DNA from: Escherichia coli O127:H6 str. E2348/69
GTDB lineage: Bacteria > Pseudomonadota > Gammaproteobacteria > Enterobacterales > Enterobacteriaceae
Assembly: GCF_000026545.1 (NCBI RefSeq)
Contig: NC_011601.1
Length of the DNA stretch: 64,000 nucleotides
Reading direction: 5' to 3' (one strand)
Under the pieces are notes generated by a model. The model saw only the letters and a list, made by a program, of their open reading frames with translations, was not told the DNA's origin and did no database searches. The stretch's first letter is position 1. Each line of letters starts with the position of its first letter. Position numbers and translations under genes: made by a program. This document shows positions 1-8,683 of this stretch, in pieces.

Positions 1-2
1 CA

Positions 3-182
3 GAAGAAAAAAGAATCAAGGACGAAGAAGAGCGTAGAGCAAAGGATAAAGCTCACCGGAAAGAAGTAAATAACAAAATACTTGCTGACCTTATCAAGGT
101 TGGTGCATCAGAAGATGTTGCTAAAAATATCATAACAGCCATCGCAAAAGGCGAAGTATTCGCAACAAAAATAACCTACTAA
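3..182 (+). CDS. Hypothetical phage protein, C-terminal fragment (5' end outside window)
   Basis: Open frame from window edge to TAA at 180..182; lysine/glutamate-rich translation. Confidence 0.3.
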   Translation, partial: EEKRIKDEEERRAKDKAHRKEVNNKILADLIKVGASEDVAKNIITAIAKGEVFATKITY

Positions 183-205
183 TAAACCAACATAAGGAAC
201 CACCC

Positions 206-337
206 ATGATTTACGCAATCGCGGGAGGCGCTCGCATGGGTGCCTTCCAACTAAATGAATCTTTACTTGAACGAATCACCCGTAAATTACGTGACGGATG
301 GAAAAGAGTTGAGGTCTTATTATGCGCAATGAAATAG
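206..337 (+). CDS. Small hypothetical phage protein (43 aa)
   Basis: ATG at 206 preceded by AAGGA; overlaps next ORF. Confidence 0.3.
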   Translation: MIYAIAGGARMGAFQLNESLLERITRKLRDGWKRVEVLLCAMK

Positions 338-474
338 CCATCAATCACCAGATGCTTCGTGCTGCACAGAACAAAGCAGTAATAGCCAGATTTATTGGTG
401 ATTCAAAAATGTGGCTTGAAGCAAATAAAGCGATGAAATCAGCTATCAACCTTCCGTGGTATCGCAGGAAATGA
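322..474 (+). CDS. Small hypothetical phage protein (50 aa)
   Basis: ATG 322 overlaps the end of the previous ORF; stop overlaps the next start (ATGA at 471..474). Confidence 0.3.
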   Translation: MRNEIAINHQMLRAAQNKAVIARFIGDSKMWLEANKAMKSAINLPWYRRK

Positions 475-629
475 GTTTTACAGATAACTGGTCAGACGAA
501 GAATTCATTCGTCAGATGAAAGAATTAATCGGTAACGAAGGAGATATTCATGTCACTTGCAACCACAGTGAAGGAGAGCAAGTTACAGAGACGCATGTAC
601 ACGCAGAAAGCTCTCTGGTATCGCCATAA
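471..629 (+). CDS. Small hypothetical phage protein (52 aa)
   Basis: ATG 471 preceded by AGGAA; part of a coupled small-ORF stack. Confidence 0.3.
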   Translation: MSFTDNWSDEEFIRQMKELIGNEGDIHVTCNHSEGEQVTETHVHAESSLVSP

Positions 630-728
630 TGGTGACCGCGAAGGAATGCGGGTATGCCTTAATTTGTCCCGAGTCGAAGTATTAAATCAGCGTTATTTCC
701 TTGGGCCGTGTCCATTCTGAGGTGAATT

Positions 729-1436
729 ATGGATTTGAACAAATTCGATGAGCCATTCAGCCCTGAAGATATAGAATGGAGAATACAGCAAAGCGGTAAA
801 ACACGCGATGGCAAGGTGTGGGCTATGGTGCTGGCTTATGTCACGAACAGGGCAATCATGAAACGCCTTGACGATGTTTGCGGCAAAGCAGGATGGCGCA
901 ATGAATACCGAGATATTCCCAACAACGGAGGCGTTGAATGCGGCATATCAATCAGGATTGATTCCGAATGGGTAACCAAATGGGATGCTGCTGAAAACAC
1001 GCAGGTAGAAGCCGTAAAAGGTGGTCGTTCCGGTGCAATGAAGCGCGCTGCCGTTCAGTGGGGAATCGGTCGGTATCTGTATAACCTTGAGGAAGGTTTC
1101 GCACAAACATCTCTCGATAAAAAGCAGGGATGGCACAGGGCAAAACTCAAGGATGGAACAGGATTTTACTGGCTCCCTCCATCGCTGCCGGGATGGGCAA
1201 TCCCAGCATCAGATAACAAACCATCACCAGAAAATACCAACCAGACATCTCCATCGGTTGACTGCGAACAAATCCTGAAAGACTTCAGCGATTATGCATC
1301 AACAGAAACTGACAAGAAAAAACTCATCGAGCGTTATCAGCGTGACTGGCAATTAATGGCTGGCAACGAGGAGGCACAGGCTAAATGCGTTCAGGTAATG
1401 AACATCAGAGTTAACGAACTAAAACAGGCGGCATAA
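729..1436 (+). CDS. Rad52/Sak-like single-strand annealing protein (putative)
   Basis: 235 aa; motif AMKRAAVQWGIGRYLY resembles the Rad52 N-domain signature; sits upstream of ssb in a phage recombination module; GAGG RBS. Confidence 0.5.
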   Translation: MDLNKFDEPFSPEDIEWRIQQSGKTRDGKVWAMVLAYVTNRAIMKRLDDVCGKAGWRNEYRDIPNNGGVECGISIRIDSEWVTKWDAAENTQVEAVKGGRSGAMKRAAVQWGIGRYLYNLEEGFAQTSLDKKQGWHRAKLKDGTGFYWLPPSLPGWAIPASDNKPSPENTNQTSPSVDCEQILKDFSDYASTETDKKKLIERYQRDWQLMAGNEEAQAKCVQVMNIRVNELKQAA

Positions 1437-1904
1437 ATGTCTCACTTGGACGGAATTATTAAAAGATTCGAGTCCAGCTACAAAGTTAATGAAACAACAG
1501 GTTGCTGGGAGTCTACCTATTCAAAAAACAAAGGAGGATACACAAAATTTGTAGCCTTTGGCGTAACAATGCTTTCTCATCGGGTTGCTTTTGAGCTTTA
1601 TCACTCCCCCATTCCATCTGGGAAGATGGTTTGCCACAAATGCGATAACCAATGCTGCGTTAATCCTGAACATCTCTTTTTAGGTAGCGCGCAAGAAAAC
1701 ATGGACGACAAGATAGCAAAAGGAAGGCATCGTGGAGCCAAGAAAGGTCATGCTCATCATGGTGCAAAATTAACAGAGTGGCAGGTTATAGAAATTAGGA
1801 AAAGACTCTCTGAAAAAGAGAGTCAGTACAAGATAGCAAAAGACATGGGTGTATCTCAATCAATTATAAGCAACATAAAAACTGGCAAGAGGTGGAGCAA
1901 ATGA
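1437..1904 (+). CDS. HNH endonuclease with C-terminal HTH
   Basis: Motif [23 protein letters not shown] (HNH_3-type); start abuts the stop of the upstream gene; stop overlaps ssb start. Confidence 0.7.
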
Positions 1905-2407
1905 GTTCTCGCGGGATAAATAAGGTGATTATCCTTGGTCGGGTAGGACAAGACCCGGAAGTTCGATACTCACCATCAGGAACAGCGTTCGCTAACCTGA
2001 CAATAGCCACGTCAGAACAATGGCGAGATAAAAATACTGGCGAGCAAAAGGAATTGACTGAATGGCATCGTGTTGCTGTATCCGGGAAACTGGCTGAGGT
2101 CGTGGGGCAGTATGTGAAAAAAGGTGATCAGATTTATTTCGAGGGAATGCTGAGAACCAGAAAGTGGAAAGACCAGTCAGGGCAAGACCGTTACACAACC
2201 GAGGTTCATGTCGGAATTAATGGCGTGATGCAAATGCTTGGCGGCATTGGCGACAGCAAACAACAAGCAGCCAGCAGGCAATCACAGAAGCCACAGCAGC
2301 AATCATCACCAGCACAACACAACGAACCTCCGATGGATTTTGACGACGATATACCCTTTGCACCAGTAACTCTCCCCTTCCCTCGTCACGCTATTCACGC
2401 AATTTAA
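1901..2407 (+). CDS. ssb: Single-stranded DNA-binding protein (prophage SSB) with 15-residue extension after DDDIPF
   Basis: N-terminus [25 protein letters not shown]-fold core, Q/P-rich linker and DFDDDIPF motif; ATG 1901 with AGGTGGAG RBS (the ORF track starts at GTG 1892). Confidence 0.85.
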
Positions 2408-2420
2408 TCAGGAGAAAATC

Positions 2421-2714
2421 ATGCCAGCGCCTCTGTATGGTGCGGATGACCCGCGCCGCTGTTCCGGCAATTCCGTATCGGAGGTGCTGGATAAATTCAG
2501 AAAAAACTACGATCGAATAATGTCTCTACCGCAGGAAACGAAAGAGGAAAAGGAATTTCGCCACTGTATATGGCTTGCAGAGAAAGAAGAACGCGAGCGA
2601 ATTTACCAGACATCAATCCGACCATTCCGCAAAGCCACATATACCCACTTCCCTGAAATTGACCCGCGCCTGCGTAATTACCGCTCACGTTATGGCGCTA
2701 TCAGTAATGACTGA
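2421..2714 (+). CDS. Hypothetical phage protein (97 aa)
   Basis: ORF with AGGAGA RBS directly after ssb. Confidence 0.45.
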
Positions 2715-2724
2715 GGAATTTACC

Positions 2725-2892
2725 ATGAGAGGACTTGCATACAATCCCGGCATTCTTCCGGCAGAAATGATTATTCGCCAACGCGTAAAGCCAATGCCAT
2801 CGAGAGAGGAATTGCTTAAGAGAAATTCTTCTCCGTCAGTGAATCAAAACAAATATCTGAATGCGATGTGGCGCAAAGGAGGCAACCAGTGA
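2725..2892 (+). CDS. Small hypothetical phage protein (55 aa)
   Basis: ATG 2725 with GAGGAA RBS; the track's longer 2575 start overlaps the previous gene. Confidence 0.35.
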
Positions 2893-3158
2893 GTGAGTCA
2901 AAATGCCAAATTAATGGCAACAAGATAGAACCGTGCGCGGCGTTGGCAAAATCTCTCGAATATGGAAATCCAACATTCAAGAGTAAAGGCATATTTATCC
3001 CGGAGCGTGTGAACATAAACACCGGCGAGTCATGCATAGATATTGCTCAAATTCACTCGGGGAAATATATCGGTCGTGGCGTTGCAATGTGCTTTTGCCC
3101 GTTCTGTGGTGAAAGTTTGAAAACGTGGGAAGCGGAGGCAGCCAGTGAGCAAAATTGA
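2890..3158 (+). CDS. Hypothetical phage protein with C-terminal CPFC motif
   Basis: GTG 2890 preceded by AGGAGG; start overlaps the upstream stop. Confidence 0.4.
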
Positions 3159-3783
3159 CCATCAGGCACTGCGTGAGGCGGCAGAGCAGGCAATGCATGA
3201 CGACTGGGGATTTGACGCGGACCTTTTCCATGAGCTGGTAACACCATCGATTGTGCTGGAACTGCTGGATGAACAGGAAAGAAACCAGCAATACATCAAA
3301 CGCCGCGACCAGGAGAACGAGGAGATTGCGCTTACGGTTGGGAAGCTGCGTGTTGAGCTTGAAGCAGCAGAGAACAACCTTATTGATAGTGAATGCCATG
3401 TTGCTGAACTGGAAGAAGCTCTACGCGATAAGCAGGCGTTACTTGAAGCCTCAGAAAAGCGCAACGCAAAATTACAAAGCGAGAATGCATACATCCGCAA
3501 CCGGTACAAAGAACTGGACCTATTAATCGGGAAAAACATTCTGGTCATGCAGGCTGCCATTATCGAATGGCAGGCAACTGGCGACGCTAAGAGCGGACTA
3601 GCATGGATTTATAACACACTGTTTGGCCCTGGCGAATTACCGGACGAATCTGAGAAAGATGCTCAGGCCTACTTTAATCGCAAATATGCACCGATTGACG
3701 AAAAGCTTATGGCGCTTCACAAGTGGTTTTGGGAACAAAGTGAAGCCGAGCGCGCCGCTGGCATTCGCATCAAAGGAGAGTGA
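3145..3783 (+). CDS. Coiled-coil phage protein (ea-region type)
   Basis: 212 aa; acidic, heptad-rich central segment; position in the ea region. Confidence 0.5.
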   Translation: MSKIDHQALREAAEQAMHDDWGFDADLFHELVTPSIVLELLDEQERNQQYIKRRDQENEEIALTVGKLRVELEAAENNLIDSECHVAELEEALRDKQALLEASEKRNAKLQSENAYIRNRYKELDLLIGKNILVMQAAIIEWQATGDAKSGLAWIYNTLFGPGELPDESEKDAQAYFNRKYAPIDEKLMALHKWFWEQSEAERAAGIRIKGE

Positions 3784-3784
3784 G

Positions 3785-3976
3785 ATGAACGGACAAATCT
3801 CAATTGTTCGACCGGGAGCATGTGACGATTGCGAGATACGAATGATTATTCGTCTGGCGAGGGGGAAAACAATAACTGCTCTCATTACTCCAGAAAATCT
3901 CGCATTAGCATTAACCGGAAAGTCAGACCTGCCAGTAGAGCTAAAGCTGCGAAATGTTGAGATTAAGGTGAAATAG
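3785..3976 (+). CDS. Small hypothetical phage protein (63 aa)
   Basis: ATG 3785 with GGAGAG RBS immediately after the upstream stop. Confidence 0.4.
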   Translation: MNGQISIVRPGACDDCEIRMIIRLARGKTITALITPENLALALTGKSDLPVELKLRNVEIKVK

Positions 3977-3978
3977 CT

Positions 3979-4374
3979 ATGACCACTATTACCAAAGAGC
4001 GACTGCTGACAATCAAGCAGTGGCGCGAAACATACGGACCGGGTAGCAACGTTGTACTGCCAGCAGAAGAAGCGGAAGAACTGGCACGAATTGCTCTGGC
4101 ATCGCTGGAAGTCGAGCCGATAGGTTTCCGTTGCAGGCGCAATGATAACCTTGGTGATTGGAGTTACGTATATCATCGAGAGCCAGATGATTTTGAGCGC
4201 AAACATTTAGTGATAGAGGGCATTTACGCCGCCCCTCCAGCGCAAGTAGTACCGAAAGAAAAACCAATGCCTAATCCTCTTAGCATGTACGCGGTTGATG
4301 CTGTTGCCGCTATTGCAGAGGTGAGAGGCTGGAACGCCTGCCGTGCCGCTATGCTTCAGGGGAAAGGAGACTGA
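3979..4374 (+). CDS. Hypothetical phage protein sharing an N-terminal module with the 4584..5216 gene
   Basis: 131 aa; MTTIT start and ELARIALASLEVEP block shared with the downstream paralogue. Confidence 0.5.
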   Translation: MTTITKERLLTIKQWRETYGPGSNVVLPAEEAEELARIALASLEVEPIGFRCRRNDNLGDWSYVYHREPDDFERKHLVIEGIYAAPPAQVVPKEKPMPNPLSMYAVDAVAAIAEVRGWNACRAAMLQGKGD

Positions 4375-4375
4375 T

Positions 4376-4573
4376 ATGGATAAAAACACCACTGCTTACT
4401 GGAATCTGTCACTTGATACCGAATGCCCAAAATGCGGTCACAATTTCGATCTGCTTTGTGACGCTGATTTCTGGGAGTTTTCTGGAGCTAAACAGGCATG
4501 TGAAGAAATAAAAGGTTACGAAACATGCTGTCCAGAATGTAACCATGAATTTAAAACAGATTTCGTGTATTGA
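4376..4573 (+). CDS. Small zinc-ribbon protein (CPKC ... CPEC)
   Basis: 65 aa; two CxxC pairs; AGGAGA RBS before ATG 4376. Confidence 0.45.
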   Translation: MDKNTTAYWNLSLDTECPKCGHNFDLLCDADFWEFSGAKQACEEIKGYETCCPECNHEFKTDFVY

Positions 4574-4583
4574 GGCATAACAA

Positions 4584-5216
4584 ATGACCACTATTACCAG
4601 AGAACAGGCACAGAAAATTATTGAAGCAGCCGATGAGGTTATTAGTGCGCTTGCCGGAACTAACGAGGATGTTCACCCTGGTAGCGATAACATGCTACGC
4701 CTGTGGGATGACCTGAATGACCGTTACGCGCCCCCTGAAGTTGTGCGTGAGCTGGCACGAATTGCACTGGCATCACTGGAAGCAGAGCCTGTAAGCCAAA
4801 CTTACAACTTGCCAGAATTAATCGAAGGGATGGAAGTTTCCATTGATGTAAGCACTTGTGATGCTGATTTAGGTAATCGCTATTTCGGTACCGTCACCGA
4901 GGCGTTAGAACTTGATACAGCCAAGAATGGTTACATCCTCCTAGTTCAGGACGCAGAGCCAAACTTCGATGTAAATGGCAACTCTCCGGTAATTCCGGGC
5001 GGTTGGATAAGCTGTAGTGAGCGAATGCCGGATAGCAAAACAGCCGTTCTTGTTGCCAGGGAGTTTGACAGGAAAGGTGACTGGCGAATGAAATGGGCGA
5101 CTTACATCCCGGGGCATCCTGACGCTAATGATGGGTGGGTAATACCTGGTGCGTCGTGGATACCATCACACTGGATGCCGCTACCAGAACCGCCGCAGGA
5201 GGTTAACCATGGCTAA
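4584..5216 (+). CDS. Phage protein with DUF551-like C-terminal domain
   Basis: 210 aa; N-terminal module paralogous to 3979..4374; C-terminal W-rich segment (WISCSERMP ... WIPSHWMPLPEPP). Confidence 0.55.
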   Translation: MTTITREQAQKIIEAADEVISALAGTNEDVHPGSDNMLRLWDDLNDRYAPPEVVRELARIALASLEAEPVSQTYNLPELIEGMEVSIDVSTCDADLGNRYFGTVTEALELDTAKNGYILLVQDAEPNFDVNGNSPVIPGGWISCSERMPDSKTAVLVAREFDRKGDWRMKWATYIPGHPDANDGWVIPGASWIPSHWMPLPEPPQEVNHG

Positions 5217-5316
5217 CCTGCAACTTGCCGTCAAAGGTGAATAACAATCCTCGCACTCGCGGGGATTTCTTTTATCTGAACTCGCTACGGCGAGTTTTGT
5301 TTTATGGAGATGATAA

Positions 5317-5484
5317 ATGCACTTCCGAGTCACAGGTGAATGGAATGGAGAACCATTCAACAGAGTTATCGAAGCGGAGAACATCAACGACTGCTATGAC
5401 CACTGGATGCTGTGGGCGCAGATAGCACATGCAGACGTAACCAATATTCGAATTGAAGAACTGAAAGAACACCAAGCCGCCTGA
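5317..5484 (+). CDS. Small hypothetical phage protein (55 aa)
   Basis: ATG 5317 with GGAGA RBS; stop lies in the loop of a terminator hairpin. Confidence 0.35.
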   Translation: MHFRVTGEWNGEPFNRVIEAENINDCYDHWMLWAQIAHADVTNIRIEELKEHQAA

Positions 5485-5496
5485 TGGCGGTTTTTT
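5477..5496 (+). terminator. Rho-independent terminator upstream of torI
   Basis: CCGCC-TGAT-GGCGG hairpin followed by TTTTTT. Confidence 0.5.
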
Positions 5497-5541
5497 ATTA
5501 CCTGATTTGCAGGTTCGATTCCCTATTCGGAGATAGCACTC

Positions 5542-5742
5542 ATGCAACACGAATTACAGCCTGATTCACTGGTTGATTTGAAATTCATCATGGCCGATAC
5601 TGGCTTCGGTAAAACCTTCATCTATGACCGGATTAAGTCCGGCGACCTGCCAAAAGCCAAAGTTATCCACGGGCGAGCAAGATGGTTATATCGTGACCAT
5701 TGTGAATTCAAAAATAAGCTCTTAAGCCGCGCCAATGGGTAA
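5542..5742 (+). CDS. torI: Prophage excisionase / recombination directionality factor TorI
   Basis: 66 aa translation recognised as TorI (MQHELQPDSLVDLKFIMADTGFGKTFIYDRIKSGDLPKA...); lies next to the att core. Confidence 0.9.
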   Translation: MQHELQPDSLVDLKFIMADTGFGKTFIYDRIKSGDLPKAKVIHGRARWLYRDHCEFKNKLLSRANG

Positions 5743-5814
5743 AATAGCGGGTAAAATATTTCTCACATCTAAAAAACTCCATTCCAATCAATCCCCTGCC
5801 GCTTCAAGTAGATG

Positions 5815-5830
5815 TCTGCAGGGGACACCA
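5815..5830 (+). repeat. Prophage attR core (copy of the tRNA-Arg argW 3' end)
   Basis: TCTGCAGGGGACACCA matches the 3' end of argW; located 73 bp downstream of torI. Confidence 0.7.
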
Positions 5831-6269
5831 GATACCCTTCAAACGATATCTACCTTCACCCCGTAAAAGATAAGTTTGGCAGCACATTTGCCCTATCTAC
5901 TCATTTTTCCTGCAACAGGTTGAAATCTCAACACGGTCAGAAAACGCTGATGACTAAACAGCCCTGGGCCGGGCGATGTAACCATCACACACAATCCTGA
6001 TCGCGAAATATGGCGTGACTTGATACTTCACTCCACAATGCTTTCCTTGATGAATTCGCAGGCCCGTGATACACGGGACAGGTCGCTGAATTACGACAAT
6101 GCCCTGGAAATCAGCGAGCCGTGTATCCAGAGTACATTTGAGCGACTGTACCAGAACATGAATGAGGCGTTTGGATTAGGCGATTATTAGCAGGGCTAAG
6201 CATTTTGGTATTATTATTTTCCGGTTGAGGGATATAGAGCTATCGACAACAACCGGAAAAAGTTTACGT

Positions 6270-7517
6270 TTATATTGCTGAAGGTACTGGCGTTTCCATC
6301 ACTATTTGCTCACGTTTTTTACTCAGGAAGAAAATGCCAAATAGCAACATCAGGCAGACAATACCCGAAATTGCGAAAAAAACCGTCTGGTAGCCTGCGT
6401 GGTCAAAGAGTATCCCAGTCGGCGTTGAAAGCAGCACAATCCCCAACGAACTGGCAATTTGAAAACCAATCAGAAAGATCGTCGACGACAGGCGCTTATC
6501 AAAATTTGCCACGCTGTATTTGAAGACGGATATGACACAAAGTGGAACCTCAATGGCATGTAACAGCTTCACTAATGAAATAATCCAGGGGTTAACGAAT
6601 AGCGCGCAGGAAAGGATACGCAACGCCATAATCACAACACCGATAAGTAATGCATTTTTTGGCCCTACCCGATTCACAAAGAAAGGAATAATCGCCATGC
6701 ACAGCGCTTCGAGTACCACCTGGAATGAGTTGAGATAACCATACAGGCGCGTTCCTACATCGTGTGATTCGAATAAACCTGCATAAAAGACAGGAAAGAG
6801 TTGTTGATCAAAAATGTTATAGAAAGACCACGTCCCCACAATAAATATGACGAAAACCCAGAAGTTTCGATCCTTGAAAACTGCGATAAAATCCTCTTTT
6901 TTTACCCCTCCCGCATCCGCCGCTATGCACTGGTGATCCTTATCTTTAAAACGCATGTTGATCATCATAAATACAGCGCCAAATAGCGAGACCAACCAGA
7001 AGTTGATATGGGGACTGATACTAAAAAATATACCGGCAAAGAACGCGCCAATAGCATAGCCAAAAGATCCCCAGGCGCGCGCTGTTCCATATTCGAAATG
7101 AAAATTTCGCGCCATTTTTTCGGTGAAGCTGTCAAGCAAACCGCATCCCGCCAGATACCCCAGGCCAAAAAAGAGCGCCCCCAGAATTAGACCTGCAGAA
7201 AAATTGCTTTGCAGTAACGGTTCATAAACGTAAATCATAAACGGTCCGGTCAAGACCAGAATGAAACTCATACACCAGATGAGCGGTTTCTTCAGACCGA
7301 GTTTATCCTGAACGATGCCGTAGAACATCATAAATAGAATGCTGGTAAACTGGTTGACCGAATAAAGTGTACCTAATTCCGTCCCTGTTAATCCTAGATG
7401 TCCTTTCAGCCAAATAGCGTATAATGACCACCACAGCGACCAGGAAATAAAAAAGAGAAATGAGTAACTGGATGCAAAACGATAGTACGCATTTCTGAAT
7501 GGAATATTCAGTGCCAT
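6270..7517 (-). CDS. cscB: Sucrose:H+ symporter (oligosaccharide:H+ symporter family)
   Basis: 415 aa, 12-TMS-like; N-terminus MALNIPFRNAYYRFASSYSF recognised as CscB. Confidence 0.9.
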   Translation of the reverse strand: MALNIPFRNAYYRFASSYSFLFFISWSLWWSLYAIWLKGHLGLTGTELGTLYSVNQFTSILFMMFYGIVQDKLGLKKPLIWCMSFILVLTGPFMIYVYEPLLQSNFSAGLILGALFFGLGYLAGCGLLDSFTEKMARNFHFEYGTARAWGSFGYAIGAFFAGIFFSISPHINFWLVSLFGAVFMMINMRFKDKDHQCIAADAGGVKKEDFIAVFKDRNFWVFVIFIVGTWSFYNIFDQQLFPVFYAGLFESHDVGTRLYGYLNSFQVVLEALCMAIIPFFVNRVGPKNALLIGVVIMALRILSCALFVNPWIISLVKLLHAIEVPLCVISVFKYSVANFDKRLSSTIFLIGFQIASSLGIVLLSTPTGILFDHAGYQTVFFAISGIVCLMLLFGIFFLSKKREQIVMETPVPSAI

Positions 7518-7578
7518 AATTACCTGCCTGTCGTTAAAAAATTCATGTCCTATTTAGAGATAAGAGCGGCCTCGCCGT

Positions 7579-8502
7579 TTACTTCTCACTTTCCAGTTCT
7601 TGTCGACATGGCAGCGCTGTCATTGCCCCTTTCGCTGTTACTGCAAGCGCTCCGCAACGTTGAGCGAGATCGATAATTCGTCGCATTTCTCTCTCATCTG
7701 TAGATAACCCCGTAGAGGACAGACCTGTGAGTAACCCGGCAACGAACGCATCTCCCGCCCCCGTGCTATCGACACAATTCACAGACATTCCAGCAAAATG
7801 GTGAACTTGTCCTCGATAACAGACCACCACCCCTTCTGCACCTTTAGTCACCAACAGCATGGCGATCTCATACTCTTTTGCCAGGGCGCATATATCCCGA
7901 TCGTTCTGTGTTTTTCCACTGATAAGTCGCCATTCTTCTTCCGAGAGCTTGACGACATCCGCCAGTTGTAGCGCCTGCCGCAAACACAAGCGGAGCAAAT
8001 GCTCGTCTTGCCATAGATCTTCACGAATATTGGGATCGAAGCTGACAAAACCTCCGGCATGCCGGAGCGCCGTCATCGCAGTAAATGCGCTGGTACGCGA
8101 AGGCTCGGCAGACAACGCAATTGAACAGAGATGTAACCATTCGCCATGTCGCCAGCAGGGCAAGTCTGTCGTCTCTAAAAAAAGATCGGCACTGGGGCGG
8201 ACCATAAACGTAAATGAACGTTCTCCTTGATCGTTCAGATCGACAAGCACCGTGGATGTCCGGTGCCATTCATCTTGCTTCAGATACGTGATATCGACAC
8301 CCTCAGTTAGCAGCGTTCTTTGCATTAACGCACCAAAAGGATCATCACCGACCCGACCTATAAACCCACTTGTTCCGCCTAATCTGGCGATTCCCACCGC
8401 AACGTTAGCTGGCGCACCGCCAGGACAAGGCAGTAGCCGCCCGTCTGATTCTGGCAAGAGATCTACGACCGCATCCCCTAAAACCCACACTTTGGCTGAC
8501 AT
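7579..8502 (-). CDS. cscK: Fructokinase (PfkB family)
   Basis: 307 aa; GG motif and C-terminal DTxGAGD ribokinase-family signature; position in the csc cluster. Confidence 0.9.
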   Translation of the reverse strand: MSAKVWVLGDAVVDLLPESDGRLLPCPGGAPANVAVGIARLGGTSGFIGRVGDDPFGALMQRTLLTEGVDITYLKQDEWHRTSTVLVDLNDQGERSFTFMVRPSADLFLETTDLPCWRHGEWLHLCSIALSAEPSRTSAFTAMTALRHAGGFVSFDPNIREDLWQDEHLLRLCLRQALQLADVVKLSEEEWRLISGKTQNDRDICALAKEYEIAMLLVTKGAEGVVVCYRGQVHHFAGMSVNCVDSTGAGDAFVAGLLTGLSSTGLSTDEREMRRIIDLAQRCGALAVTAKGAMTALPCRQELESEK

Positions 8503-8607
8503 TTTTTTCCCTTAAATTCATCTGACTTACGCATAGTGATAAACCTCTTTTTCGCAAAATCGTCATGGATTTACTAAAACATGCATATTCGATCACAAAA
8601 CGTCATA

Positions 8608-8683
8608 GTTAACGTTAACATTTGTGATATTCATCGCATTTATGAAAGTAAGGGACTTTATTTTTATAAAAGTTAACGTTAAC
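8608..8683. promoter_or_regulatory. Divergent cscK/cscA control region: two GTTAACGTTAAC palindromes flanking a CRP-like site
   Basis: Perfect 12-bp palindrome at 8608..8619 and 8672..8683; TGTGA-N6-TCGCA at 8623..8638. Confidence 0.5.

Follow-up and report, generated by a model that had tools for sequence, protein, structure and literature searches.

Two mosaic genes of the DUF551 family sharing short seams in the exo-xis region of an Escherichia coli E2348/69 prophage

We analysed a 64,000-nucleotide stretch of Escherichia coli O127:H6 str. E2348/69 (contig NC_011601.1; hereafter the window) and found that two of its genes, ORF1 and ORF2, which lie in the exo-xis ("ea") region of a prophage of the lambdoid/P22-like type, were probably put together independently of each other and belong to a single, very large family of early-operon accessory genes that is shuffled combinatorially. 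The similarity between the two genes is genuine, yet it is ordinary phage mosaicism, and the short seams that they share are points at which parts are exchanged. The mosaic family (PHROG 60, 'DUF551 proteins') resides in enterobacterial prophages of the lambdoid and P22-like types, and the pattern agrees with the modular ea/exo-xis organisation that a first-pass annotation of this DNA had proposed.

Architecture of ORF1, ORF2 and their neighbourhood

All the genes described here lie on the plus strand. Upstream of ORF1 we located a Rad52/Rad22-family single-strand-annealing recombinase gene (729–1436; annotated by RefSeq in the identical E2348/69 record, L001 1630–2337), an ead/Ea22-like gene ending in ...IRIKGE (3193–3783; PF13935, E=2e-22, and RefSeq annotation) and, directly after the latter, a 63-aa gene (3785–3976; phrog_1222, from the ORF list, RefSeq and PHROG). 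Between ORF1 and ORF2 lies a 65-aa ORF with four cysteines (CPKCG...CPECN; 4376–4573), a putative zinc-ribbon gene by its Cys motifs together with Pfam zinc-ribbon and NCBIfam YnfU matches, all below their cut-offs; it matched phrog_4173 (E=9e-28), its UniRef name is 'CPXCG motif-containing cysteine-rich protein', and the exact protein was found on at least 1000 contigs. Cluster membership had hinted at zinc-ribbon/Ea22 fusions, which we rejected: the Ea22-like members P0290 and P0295 contain no zinc ribbon.

ORF1 (3979–4374; ORF list, homologue searches and structure model) encodes 131 aa and consists, in order, of an N1 helical module, a conserved block, a C1 beta cassette, a YAAPPAQVVP linker, a second cassette, a WNACRAAMLQ helix and a terminal GKGD before the stop. 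ORF2 (4584–5216; ORF list and Pfam, RefSeq WP_000208133.1) encodes 210 aa, in which an N0 three-helix module and the same block are followed by a C0 cassette (4779–4988, beginning AEPVSQTYNLPELIEGMEVSIDVS, delimited by cassette comparison), a GNSPVIPGGW linker and a DUF551 domain (aa 140–205; 5001–5198). The W-rich DUF551-like C-terminus suspected in ORF2 is a complete PF04448 domain (E=1e-20, 74.8 bits against a gathering score of 22 bits, profile positions 1–68 of 68), whereas ORF1 matched no Pfam family at E<=0.1 and hence not PF04448. Neither protein matched the Ead/Ea22 N-terminal domain PF13935 or any NCBIfam family. Both matched phrog_60 from profile position 116 (ORF1, E=9e-24; ORF2, E=4.6e-55), and the N-module of both also matched phrog_3323, phrog_660 and phrog_5117.

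A homologue search with ORF1, whose exact protein is deposited as CAS10099.1 (UniProt B7UG69), returned 4840 matches at E<=1e-3. Over its full length ORF1 was 94–98% identical to the first ~129 aa of proteins of 200–228 aa, and its homology to DUF551 proteins was confined to their non-DUF551 N-terminal parts. Since most of these close relatives carry DUF551, we read ORF1 as a DUF551-less form; for the same reason the earlier statement that the second copy had gained DUF551 does not hold, as no polarity of gain can be derived from the comparison. Intact short forms of 125–137 aa recurred in E. coli (one of them on 41 contigs), E. albertii and Salmonella, and at least 20 distinct short forms ended at the same boundary (GKG[ED] and stop, with GGAG, TGA, n and ATG) before many different downstream genes. 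In some relatives (L007, L055) DUF551 is a separate downstream ORF, and therefore split forms fall within the normal range of the family. ORF1 thus appears from these comparisons to be a natural and recurrent DUF551-less short form.

The main competing view of ORF1 is that it is a pseudogene in decay: a full-length DUF551 gene would have lost its 3' part as the zinc-ribbon gene came in, and the shared module would be no more than the remainder. That its closest full-length relatives are mostly longer and have DUF551 fits this view, as does the automatic annotation: PGAP calls only 3979–4107, as a pseudogene fragment ('incomplete; missing C-terminus') in two assemblies, and labels the MS14384 homologue a partial DUF551 protein. 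The 43-codon PGAP fragment is, however, a mis-annotation caused by mosaicism, because the PGAP reference protein has only the N1 module and the block in common with ORF1. The reading frame of ORF1 is intact, a ribosome-binding site (AGGTGA) lies 7 nt before it, and the recurrent short forms, their conserved terminal boundary and the split DUF551 ORFs also speak against decay; we therefore consider a pseudogene unlikely.

Shared seams and reassortment across the family

ORF1 and ORF2 both begin with ATGACCACTATTACC (MTTIT) and both contain ELARIALASLE[V/A]EP (ORF1 aa 34–47, ORF2 aa 56–69), as the first-pass annotation had reported together with the coordinates of the two ORFs. The near-identical DNA stretches that it described were also recovered. 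In a DNA repeat comparison the gene-start seam ATGACCACTATTACCAAAGA (MTTITKE; 3979–3998) and its second copy ATGACCACTATTACCAGAGA (MTTITRE; 4584–4603) were identical at 19/20 nt. The ELARIAL block, which encodes the final helix of the N-terminal helical module and is a mosaic junction, is present as ELARIALASLEVEP (4078–4119) in ORF1 and as ELARIALASLEAEP (4749–4790) in ORF2, with 36/42 nt identical and a longest exact shared word of 14–16 nt; identity over 4059–4118 versus 4730–4789 was 77%. BLASTP aligned only ORF1 aa 1–48 with ORF2 aa 1–70 (27/70 identities, E=5e-7), and in 200 codon-shuffled pairs the best-matching 42-nt stretch had on average 23.7 matches (sd 1.0, max 27) against the 36 observed; on these two results chance similarity was rejected. 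The two proteins were otherwise unrelated, save for a weak PGS[ND]xxL motif. The alignment thus reached well past the first codons and was significant, so that a common N-terminal module stands as a real similarity, but it is made of two short seams and the weak motif and not of one uniformly diverged module.

A third repeated seam lies at gene boundaries (consensus AAAGGAGAsTGAnATG, gene end/gene start). Sequence comparison, including with relative L160, located its first copy, AAGGAGAGTGAGATG, at 3773–3787 (Shine-Dalgarno, ea22 stop and start of the next gene) and its second, AAGGAGACTGATATG, at 4364–4378 (Shine-Dalgarno within ...GKGD, ORF1 stop and start of the zinc-ribbon gene). The GGAG of the terminal boundary of ORF1 provides the next gene with its ribosome-binding site, and in relatives at least 8 different genes, unrelated to one another, come after the junction of ...AMLQGKG[ED], stop and TGAnATG. 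In L160 ea22 leads straight into the zinc-ribbon gene at this seam and ORF1 is absent, probably through an exchange there.

Across the family, the recurrent seams were ATGACCACTATTACC (MTTIT), ELARIALASLEAEP[VI], [IV]YAAPPAPVVP, GWNxCRxAMLQ, GNSPVTPDGW, HWMPLPEPPQ and the gene boundary. The 158 IMG/VR loci gave 113 distinct block-bearing genes, in which N-parts of 10 clusters and C-parts of 18 clusters are variously combined across the block; the table is conditioned on the ORF1 and ORF2 cassettes, since the loci were retrieved by similarity to one or the other gene. Over 2992 gene pairs the block was 84% identical while its 90-nt flanks were 29–32% identical (about the random level); identity within a cassette cluster was 95–97%, that is, above the 84% of the block. 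The block DNA occurred in 2075 of 5426 complete E. coli genomes (38%), at up to 9 places per genome.

Natural hybrids place the exchange inside the block. We found 17 distinct natural proteins that combine an ORF1-type N-part (N1) with an ORF2-type middle part (C0), and in these the diagnostic bases switch from ORF1-type to ORF2-type at differing points within the block. The block has non-homologous flanks on both sides and a switch of parent inside it. Two relatives, L134 and L097, are collinear with the window over 3442/3764–4118 and again from 4749 onward, the two alignments overlapping by the 41-nt block; they lack 4119–4789 and have one hybrid gene joined inside the block. Judged by sequence, recombination between the two copies in the window would yield exactly this hybrid gene, and the suggestion that the blocks can serve as recombination sites is supported to that extent.

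ORF2 gave the same picture. Its relatives (1942 among 50%-identity representatives) had homology breakpoints whose starts clustered at aa ~1, 48–57, 66 and 130–134 and whose ends clustered at aa 70–79, 140–160 and 204–210. In other phages the C0 cassette follows CRAAMLQGAEPV or an Ea22 coiled coil (KRIAELEAEPV), and the sequence context upstream of ORF2 (4567–4603) stands before N1-type genes in L123, L131, L006 and L094.

The first-pass annotation had regarded ORF1 and ORF2 as partial paralogs a few hundred bp apart. A tandem duplication in situ would make them local paralogs that diverged extremely everywhere except in their N-terminal blocks, with the zinc-ribbon gene inserted between them. 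They are indeed near neighbours on the same strand with a common start and one internal block, and in about 20 of the 158 related loci two genes with the block lie within 4 kb of each other, but most of these two-gene loci are near-identical copies of the same E2348/69 prophage. Outside the blocks the two window genes are at random-level identity (~30%), and both have far closer relatives elsewhere (94–98% for ORF1; 99–100% in other contigs for ORF2, whose cassettes are also found at 92–94% joined to other N-parts). Moreover, the two window copies of the block differ at 3 synonymous sites and one codon, each shares codon variants with genes elsewhere, and relatives have either gene alone or the hybrid. 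We consider local duplication very unlikely, and independent assembly of the two genes from shuffled parts remains the preferred reading.

The block peptide was invariant or nearly so, and synonymous variation was abundant in 5 of its 13 codons (CGA 75 and CGG 31; GCA 44, GCT 37 and GCG 27; TCG 79 and TCA 26; three Pro codons). Because synonymous variation accompanies conserved amino acids, these counts show that the block is, as far as codon patterns can tell, kept by purifying selection on the peptide, which forms the final helix of a small helical domain at the N-terminus. A role of the blocks at the nucleic-acid level (recombination signal, regulatory RNA or sRNA target) would fit the near fixation of some non-preferred synonyms (GCA three times, CGA) and the coincidence of crossover points with blocks, but it is very unlikely given the synonymous polymorphism, a block DNA more diverged than the adjacent cassettes, no Rfam match in 1–7000 at E<=0.1, no inverted repeat or site-specific recombinase associated with the block, and common descent as a sufficient account of the shared rare codons.

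Known systems and a proposed route of exchange

That exo-xis/ea genes are mosaic, that DUF551 is portable and that exchange takes place at conserved boundary sequences are already established ideas. Mosaicism has been described for ea22, and DUF551 is found, as a portable domain, on varied N-terminal parts (PMC10834534; PMC4776307). DUF551 proteins such as YfdS of CPS-53 resemble ORF2 in their full-length DUF551 and in their neighbourhood between recombination genes and xis; ORF1, in contrast, lacks DUF551 and is related to them through N-terminal and middle cassettes only, which are unmodelled in Pfam.

DUF551 is also located in the C-terminal region of Ea22_V2 (PMC10834534), and Ea22_V2 of Stx phages lies, like ORF1 and ORF2, in the exo-xis region and shows block mosaicism of the kind seen in them. 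We found fragments with an Ea22-type coiled coil (...EKRIAELEAEPV|SQTYNLPELIEGMEVS...) that run on into the C0 cassette of ORF2, and some of them into DUF551, the join lying at the same '..LEAEPV' seam as the end of the ELARIAL block. The Ea22_V2 proteins of PMC10834534 presumably correspond to these Ea22-type fragments leading into C0. Unlike Ea22, ORF1 and ORF2 have neither the Ead/Ea22 N-terminal domain nor the coiled coil, but another short helical N-module instead; the pro-lysogenic phenotype has been shown for ea22 and not for the ORF1 and ORF2 genes.

Homologous exchange at short conserved boundary sequences of lambdoid phages was proposed by Susskind & Botstein 1978 and Clark 2001 (HK620), as cited in PMC3029335. 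Such boundary linkers resemble the seams described here in being short and conserved, in having unrelated flanks, in lying at gene or module boundaries and in marking exchange points. They differ in that the classical examples are mostly intergenic or at gene ends, whereas two of the three seams here are inside coding sequence and peptide-selected.

Selection on the peptide turns the ELARIAL block, which ends in a Pro linker, into an island of ~84–88% DNA identity between unrelated sequences, and we propose that a divergence-tolerant, homology-driven recombination would take such islands as crossover points. The likeliest enzyme would be a phage single-strand-annealing recombinase, for example the Rad52-family protein encoded ~2.5 kb upstream (inferred from PMC3945230). 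Chimeras joined at linkers between cassettes would still fold, and so could survive and spread, and the window order (ORF1, zinc-ribbon gene, ORF2) would differ from the orders of its relatives by exchanges at exactly the seams. The comparisons suggest no direction for the individual events, each of which may be a deletion here or an insertion there.

Rad52-like phage recombinases recombine short, diverged homology, with quantified substrates of hundreds of bp (PMC3945230, De Paepe et al. 2014). Such relaxed recombination is a tested mechanism for short diverged homology, and the E2348/69 prophage encodes a recombinase of this family, but the homology here is 42 nt at 86% identity with a perfect run of 14–16 nt. 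That perfect match is short even for relaxed homologous recombination, and some junctions could be illegitimate events that were later selected to linkers.

Predicted structure, candidate roles and significance

AlphaFold2 models, of low to medium confidence, had a mean pLDDT of 69.6 and pTM of 0.32 for ORF1 (26-sequence alignment) and of 57.2 and 0.34 for ORF2 (52 sequences), in which only the N-terminal three helices were confident. In the models the block forms the final helix of an N-terminal element of 2 or 3 helices (ORF2 H51–66, pLDDT 70–85; ORF1 H29–43). Foldseek gave nothing at E<=0.001 for ORF1 against PDB or ORF2 against BFVD, sequence and profile searches of PDB (ORF2, alignment A2 and alignment A1) gave no credible match, and in seven long family members Pfam found DUF551 alone. 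A tRNA scan of 1–12000 found none, and a full-text literature search for the peptide motifs returned unrelated words only.

Because the position of the N-module relative to C0-DUF551 matches that of the Ea22 N-terminus and coiled coil in Stx-phage Ea22 variants, we guess, with weak support, that the N-terminal helical module may be a generic scaffold or oligomerisation element. On the same guess, DUF551 and the variable cassettes may then be the specificity-bearing parts of early-expressed proteins that modulate the host or phage development.

It is distinctly unlikely, although conceivable, that the family is a cassette-shuffling diversification system, in which linker peptides and their DNA are retained for rapid recombining of small target-binding cassettes, DUF551 included. 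The number of cassette types, the 95–97% identity within types beside an older seam and the wide presence in E. coli genomes are compatible with it. If it were true, the N-terminal helical module would be a common scaffold, and new early-expressed effectors would arise in an arms race, for example in anti-defence, superinfection exclusion or lysis-lysogeny control.

ORF1 and ORF2 open no new kind of biology, and their main use is for annotation and as a clean worked example of mosaicism. The N-terminal module and most cassettes are without a Pfam model, though over a third of the complete E. coli genomes contain the block. Finally, the locus with its natural 'collapsed' relatives would be a convenient substrate for measuring phage Rad52-like recombination at very short diverged homology.

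Similarity between ORF1 and ORF2

We compared two genes, ORF1 (3979-4374, plus strand; 131 aa) and ORF2 (4584-5216, plus strand; 210 aa), which are separated, as the first-pass annotation had claimed, by a 65-aa four-Cys ORF (a putative zinc-ribbon gene, hereafter the zinc-ribbon gene; 4376-4573, plus strand). Translation confirmed that both carry the MTTIT start and the motif ELARIALASLE[V/A]EP, and their similarity is real and statistically solid: BLASTP aligned ORF1 aa 1-48 with ORF2 aa 1-70 (E=5e-7; 27/70 identities, 22 gaps), with nothing significant beyond these stretches. The near-identical DNA stretches reported earlier were also recovered, with 19 of 20 nt matching between 3979-3998 and 4584-4603, a 77% match between 4059-4118 and 4730-4789, and 36 of 42 nt identical in the core of the DNA encoding the second motif (hereafter the block; 4078-4119 in ORF1, 4749-4790 in ORF2). 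The best 42-nt window of 200 codon-shuffled pairs had on average 23.7 matches (sd 1.0, maximum 27). Exact words common to both genes reached 16 nt at most, and no further copies of the shared motifs were found elsewhere in the 64-kb window.

A complete DUF551 domain (PF04448; 74.8 bits) was present in ORF2 (aa 140-205), and ORF1 had no Pfam match. The earlier reading that the second copy had gained DUF551 is not supported in its direction, as ORF1-type proteins usually carry this domain. The ORF1 search returned 4840 proteins, and the best matches (94-98% identity over the full ORF1) were 200-228 aa long and mostly ended in DUF551, which makes ORF1 the DUF551-less form of this protein type; shorter forms (125-137 aa) with an ORF1-like ending were also present. 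For ORF2, a search of 1.84 billion 50%-identity representatives yielded 1942 relatives (E<=1e-3). Their matched stretches began at aa ~1, 48-57, 66 and 130-134 and stopped at aa 70-79, 140-160 and 204-210, as expected for a mosaic of N-module, block, middle cassette (C0) and DUF551. Both proteins matched phrog_60, and their N-modules matched phrog_3323, phrog_660 and phrog_5117.

The PGAP annotation covers no more than the initial 43 codons of ORF1 (3979-4107), given as an incomplete gene (pseudogene 'missing C-terminus'). However, a pseudogene is improbable here: the fragment is most simply explained by a reference protein having just the N1 module (the ORF1-type part before the block) and the block in common with ORF1, and the entry (BQ9544_RS26360 / H4J01_RS25340) looks like an annotation artefact from mosaic reference proteins. 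The reading frame is intact, with a ribosome-binding site (AGGTGA) 7 nt upstream, and its end is a conserved boundary that provides the ribosome-binding site of the next gene. Moreover, the exact 131-aa protein was deposited in the original E2348/69 annotation (CAS10099.1 / B7UG69), E. coli, E. albertii and Salmonella all have intact forms of 125-137 aa, and DUF551 is found as a separate downstream ORF in some relatives (loci L007 and L055).

Surroundings in the prophage

The segment 3100-5500 was 100% identical to three E. coli O127:H6 E2348/69 assemblies. According to the RefSeq annotation, the stretch is the left early operon of a lambdoid/P22-like prophage, starting with cIII and kil, followed by a Rad52/Rad22-family recombinase, an HNH endonuclease, ssb, an anti-RecBCD protein and DUF2737, then by the ead/Ea22-like gene, several small genes and the DUF551 gene, and ending with a TorI-type excisionase before chromosomal cscB, cscK and cscA. 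This order, from recombination genes to excisionase, places ORF1 and ORF2 in the exo-xis ("ea") accessory region. The excisionase gene (5542-5742) lies at the prophage right end with no integrase after it; a DUF4942 fragment (~5984-6190) is the sole feature between it and cscB (6270-7517, minus strand), and no tRNA gene was found in 1-12000. The layout is similar to that of KplE1/CPS-53, where int and xis lie at the two different ends of the prophage.

Downstream of ORF2 are two terminator-like hairpins in tandem, with T-runs (5246-5267 and 5278-5297), and a third lies 3' of a 55-aa gene matching phrog_676 (5474-5493); 5 terminator-like sites were counted in the region, versus 2.6 +/- 1.5 in shuffles. 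An 11-codon mini-ORF (MANLQLAVKGE*; 5209-5244) overlaps the ORF2 stop. The same 35 nt open a full 93-aa gene in the related locus L094 (3916-4197; beginning MANLQLAVKGEYFDAMIRGEKTEEYR), so only a truncated 5' remnant of that gene is left in the window; the break falls at none of the conserved seams described below. The full gene looks ASCH-like. The 90%-identity cluster holding the zinc-ribbon protein also lists two Ea22-like proteins (P0290 and P0295), in which the zinc ribbon was absent.

Cassettes and seams in related loci

The survey covered 158 related IMG/VR loci, from which 115 distinct genes carrying an ELARIAL-type block were taken. The alignments consisted of invariant or near-invariant seams (M..IT; ELARIAL..LE.EP; (Y)AAPP.PVVP; WN.CR.AML; GNSPV.PDGW) with unrelated cassettes between them, and the seams repeated several times within long members. 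The parts before and after the block, clustered separately, formed 10 N-types and 18 C-types. These types reassort, and in this sample, conditioned on similarity to ORF1 and ORF2, ORF1-type N1 was joined to ORF1-type C1 in 9 distinct proteins and to ORF2-type C0 in 17, ORF2-type N0 to C0 in 11, and another type, N2, to C0 in 12 and to C1 in 2. The modular interpretation of the ea region was correct. In three loci (L017, L019 and L020; ~4389 onward), genes after the GKGE* boundary start with MTTITDKKQYPGEQYLNELITNIEFAARAPVEVVRAMAAELQKRREADSAEP and represent a further N-module type that begins with MTTIT and ends in ...AEP[VA] but has no ELARIAL block, which shows that start seam and block can be separated.

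In N1+C0 hybrids, the diagnostic bases switched from ORF1-type to ORF2-type at varying positions within the block. Two loci, L134 and L097, were collinear with the window from 3442 and 3764, respectively, to 4118 and then from 4749 onward, their two window alignments overlapping by exactly the 41-nt block. L134 comprises an Ea22-like gene (3193-3783 in the window), the same 63-aa gene (3785-3976) and a single 188-aa hybrid, N1-block-C0-DUF551. Such a hybrid is the product that recombination between the window's block copies, 671 bp apart, would be expected to yield, bearing out in relatives the prediction that these blocks could mediate recombination. At ~96% identity, this arrangement is a relative of the window, not a derivative, and the event was either a deletion or an insertion.

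A second repeated seam, a Shine-Dalgarno/stop/start boundary, is common to the ends of ea22 (3773-3787, AAGGAGAGTGAGATG) and ORF1 (4364-4378, AAGGAGACTGATATG). In strain 2018-10-1CC (L160), the zinc-ribbon gene directly follows ea22 at this seam, without the 63-aa gene and ORF1, so the boundary marks an exchange there too; across loci, the genes that come after the junction ...AMLQGKG[ED]* TGAnATG are of at least 8 unrelated kinds. A third seam lies at the gene start: the upstream context of ORF2 (4567-4603) precedes N1-type genes in L123, L131, L006 and L094. All repeated sequences in this 1.5-kb stretch, at block, gene boundary and gene start, are thus junctions that other family members use.

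The block peptide was near-invariant, and 5 of its 13 codons had abundant synonymous variants (CGA 75 / CGG 31; GCA 44 / GCT 37 / GCG 27; TCG 79 / TCA 26; GAG 67 / GAA 23; CCT 50 / CCA 33 / CCG 27). Gene pairs unlike in both N and C type had a mean DNA identity of 84% in the block and about 30% in the 90-nt flanks, compared with 95% in the N-part flank inside one N-type and 97% in the C-part flank inside one C-type. The synonymous variation and the lower identity of the block than of the cassettes argue that the seam predates the cassettes on either side and that selection on the amino-acid sequence maintains it. Neither recent homogenisation nor a DNA-level signal accounts for its conservation. 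No Rfam match was found in the region. AlphaFold located the block in the final helix of a short helical element at the N-terminus (helices at ORF2 aa 6-28, 35-47 and 51-66, pLDDT 70-85; ORF1 aa 6-19 and 29-43), followed by a Pro-containing linker, both models being of low confidence outside these elements.

Exchange at the block would use an island of 84-88% identity, the sole homology between otherwise unrelated sequences, and the Rad52-like recombinase of this prophage is a candidate for it. Phage Rad52-like recombinases are far better than RecA at short, diverged homology (PMC3945230), and lambdoid phages were long ago proposed to exchange DNA at short conserved boundary sequences (Clark 2001; Susskind & Botstein 1978, as cited in PMC3029335). 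Perfect matches in the present case span at most 14-16 nt, however, which is much shorter than experimentally measured recombination substrates. Junctions in linkers or terminal helices ought to keep the cassettes foldable, and such recombinants would therefore persist.

Function, distribution and meaning

No solved structures related by sequence were found, fold searches were empty, and Pfam recognised DUF551 alone on seven long relatives. DUF551 has been described as a portable domain that is found in YfdS of CPS-53 and in one of the Ea22 variants of Stx phages; yfdS loss leads to higher H2O2 sensitivity, and ea22 itself favours lysogeny (PMC10834534, PMC4776307). Fragments from other phages have C0 joined to the Ea22 coiled coil (KRIAELEAEPV followed by SQTYNLPELIEGMEVS...), some of them continuing into DUF551, and C0 was also found attached after CRAAMLQGAEPV. 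From this analogy of position, we speculate that the N-module may be a generic scaffold or oligomerisation element, with the cassettes carrying specificity.

Of 5426 complete E. coli genomes, 2075 contained block DNA, in 3495 places altogether, with up to 9 per genome and 4 in E2348/69 (NZ_CP059840.2). Plasmids of ~100 kb, possibly phage-plasmids, held 349 of the 3495 places (e.g. NC_018651.1 and NZ_CP077462.1), so the family extends beyond integrated lambdoid prophages. The exact three-gene arrangement is rare: at least 80% of the 2.4-kb query was covered in only three E2348/69 assemblies, and about five near-identical IMG/VR contigs also had it. Two E2348/69 accessions (CAS08202.1 and CAS10100.1) exist for the exact ORF2 protein, and another prophage of this strain thus appears to carry an identical copy; if true, this copy would offer inter-prophage recombination a long substrate. 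The locus represents ordinary lambdoid mosaicism of a kind already described, within a known family that is functionally uncharacterised, and its value lies in annotation and as a natural substrate for studies of recombination at very short homology.
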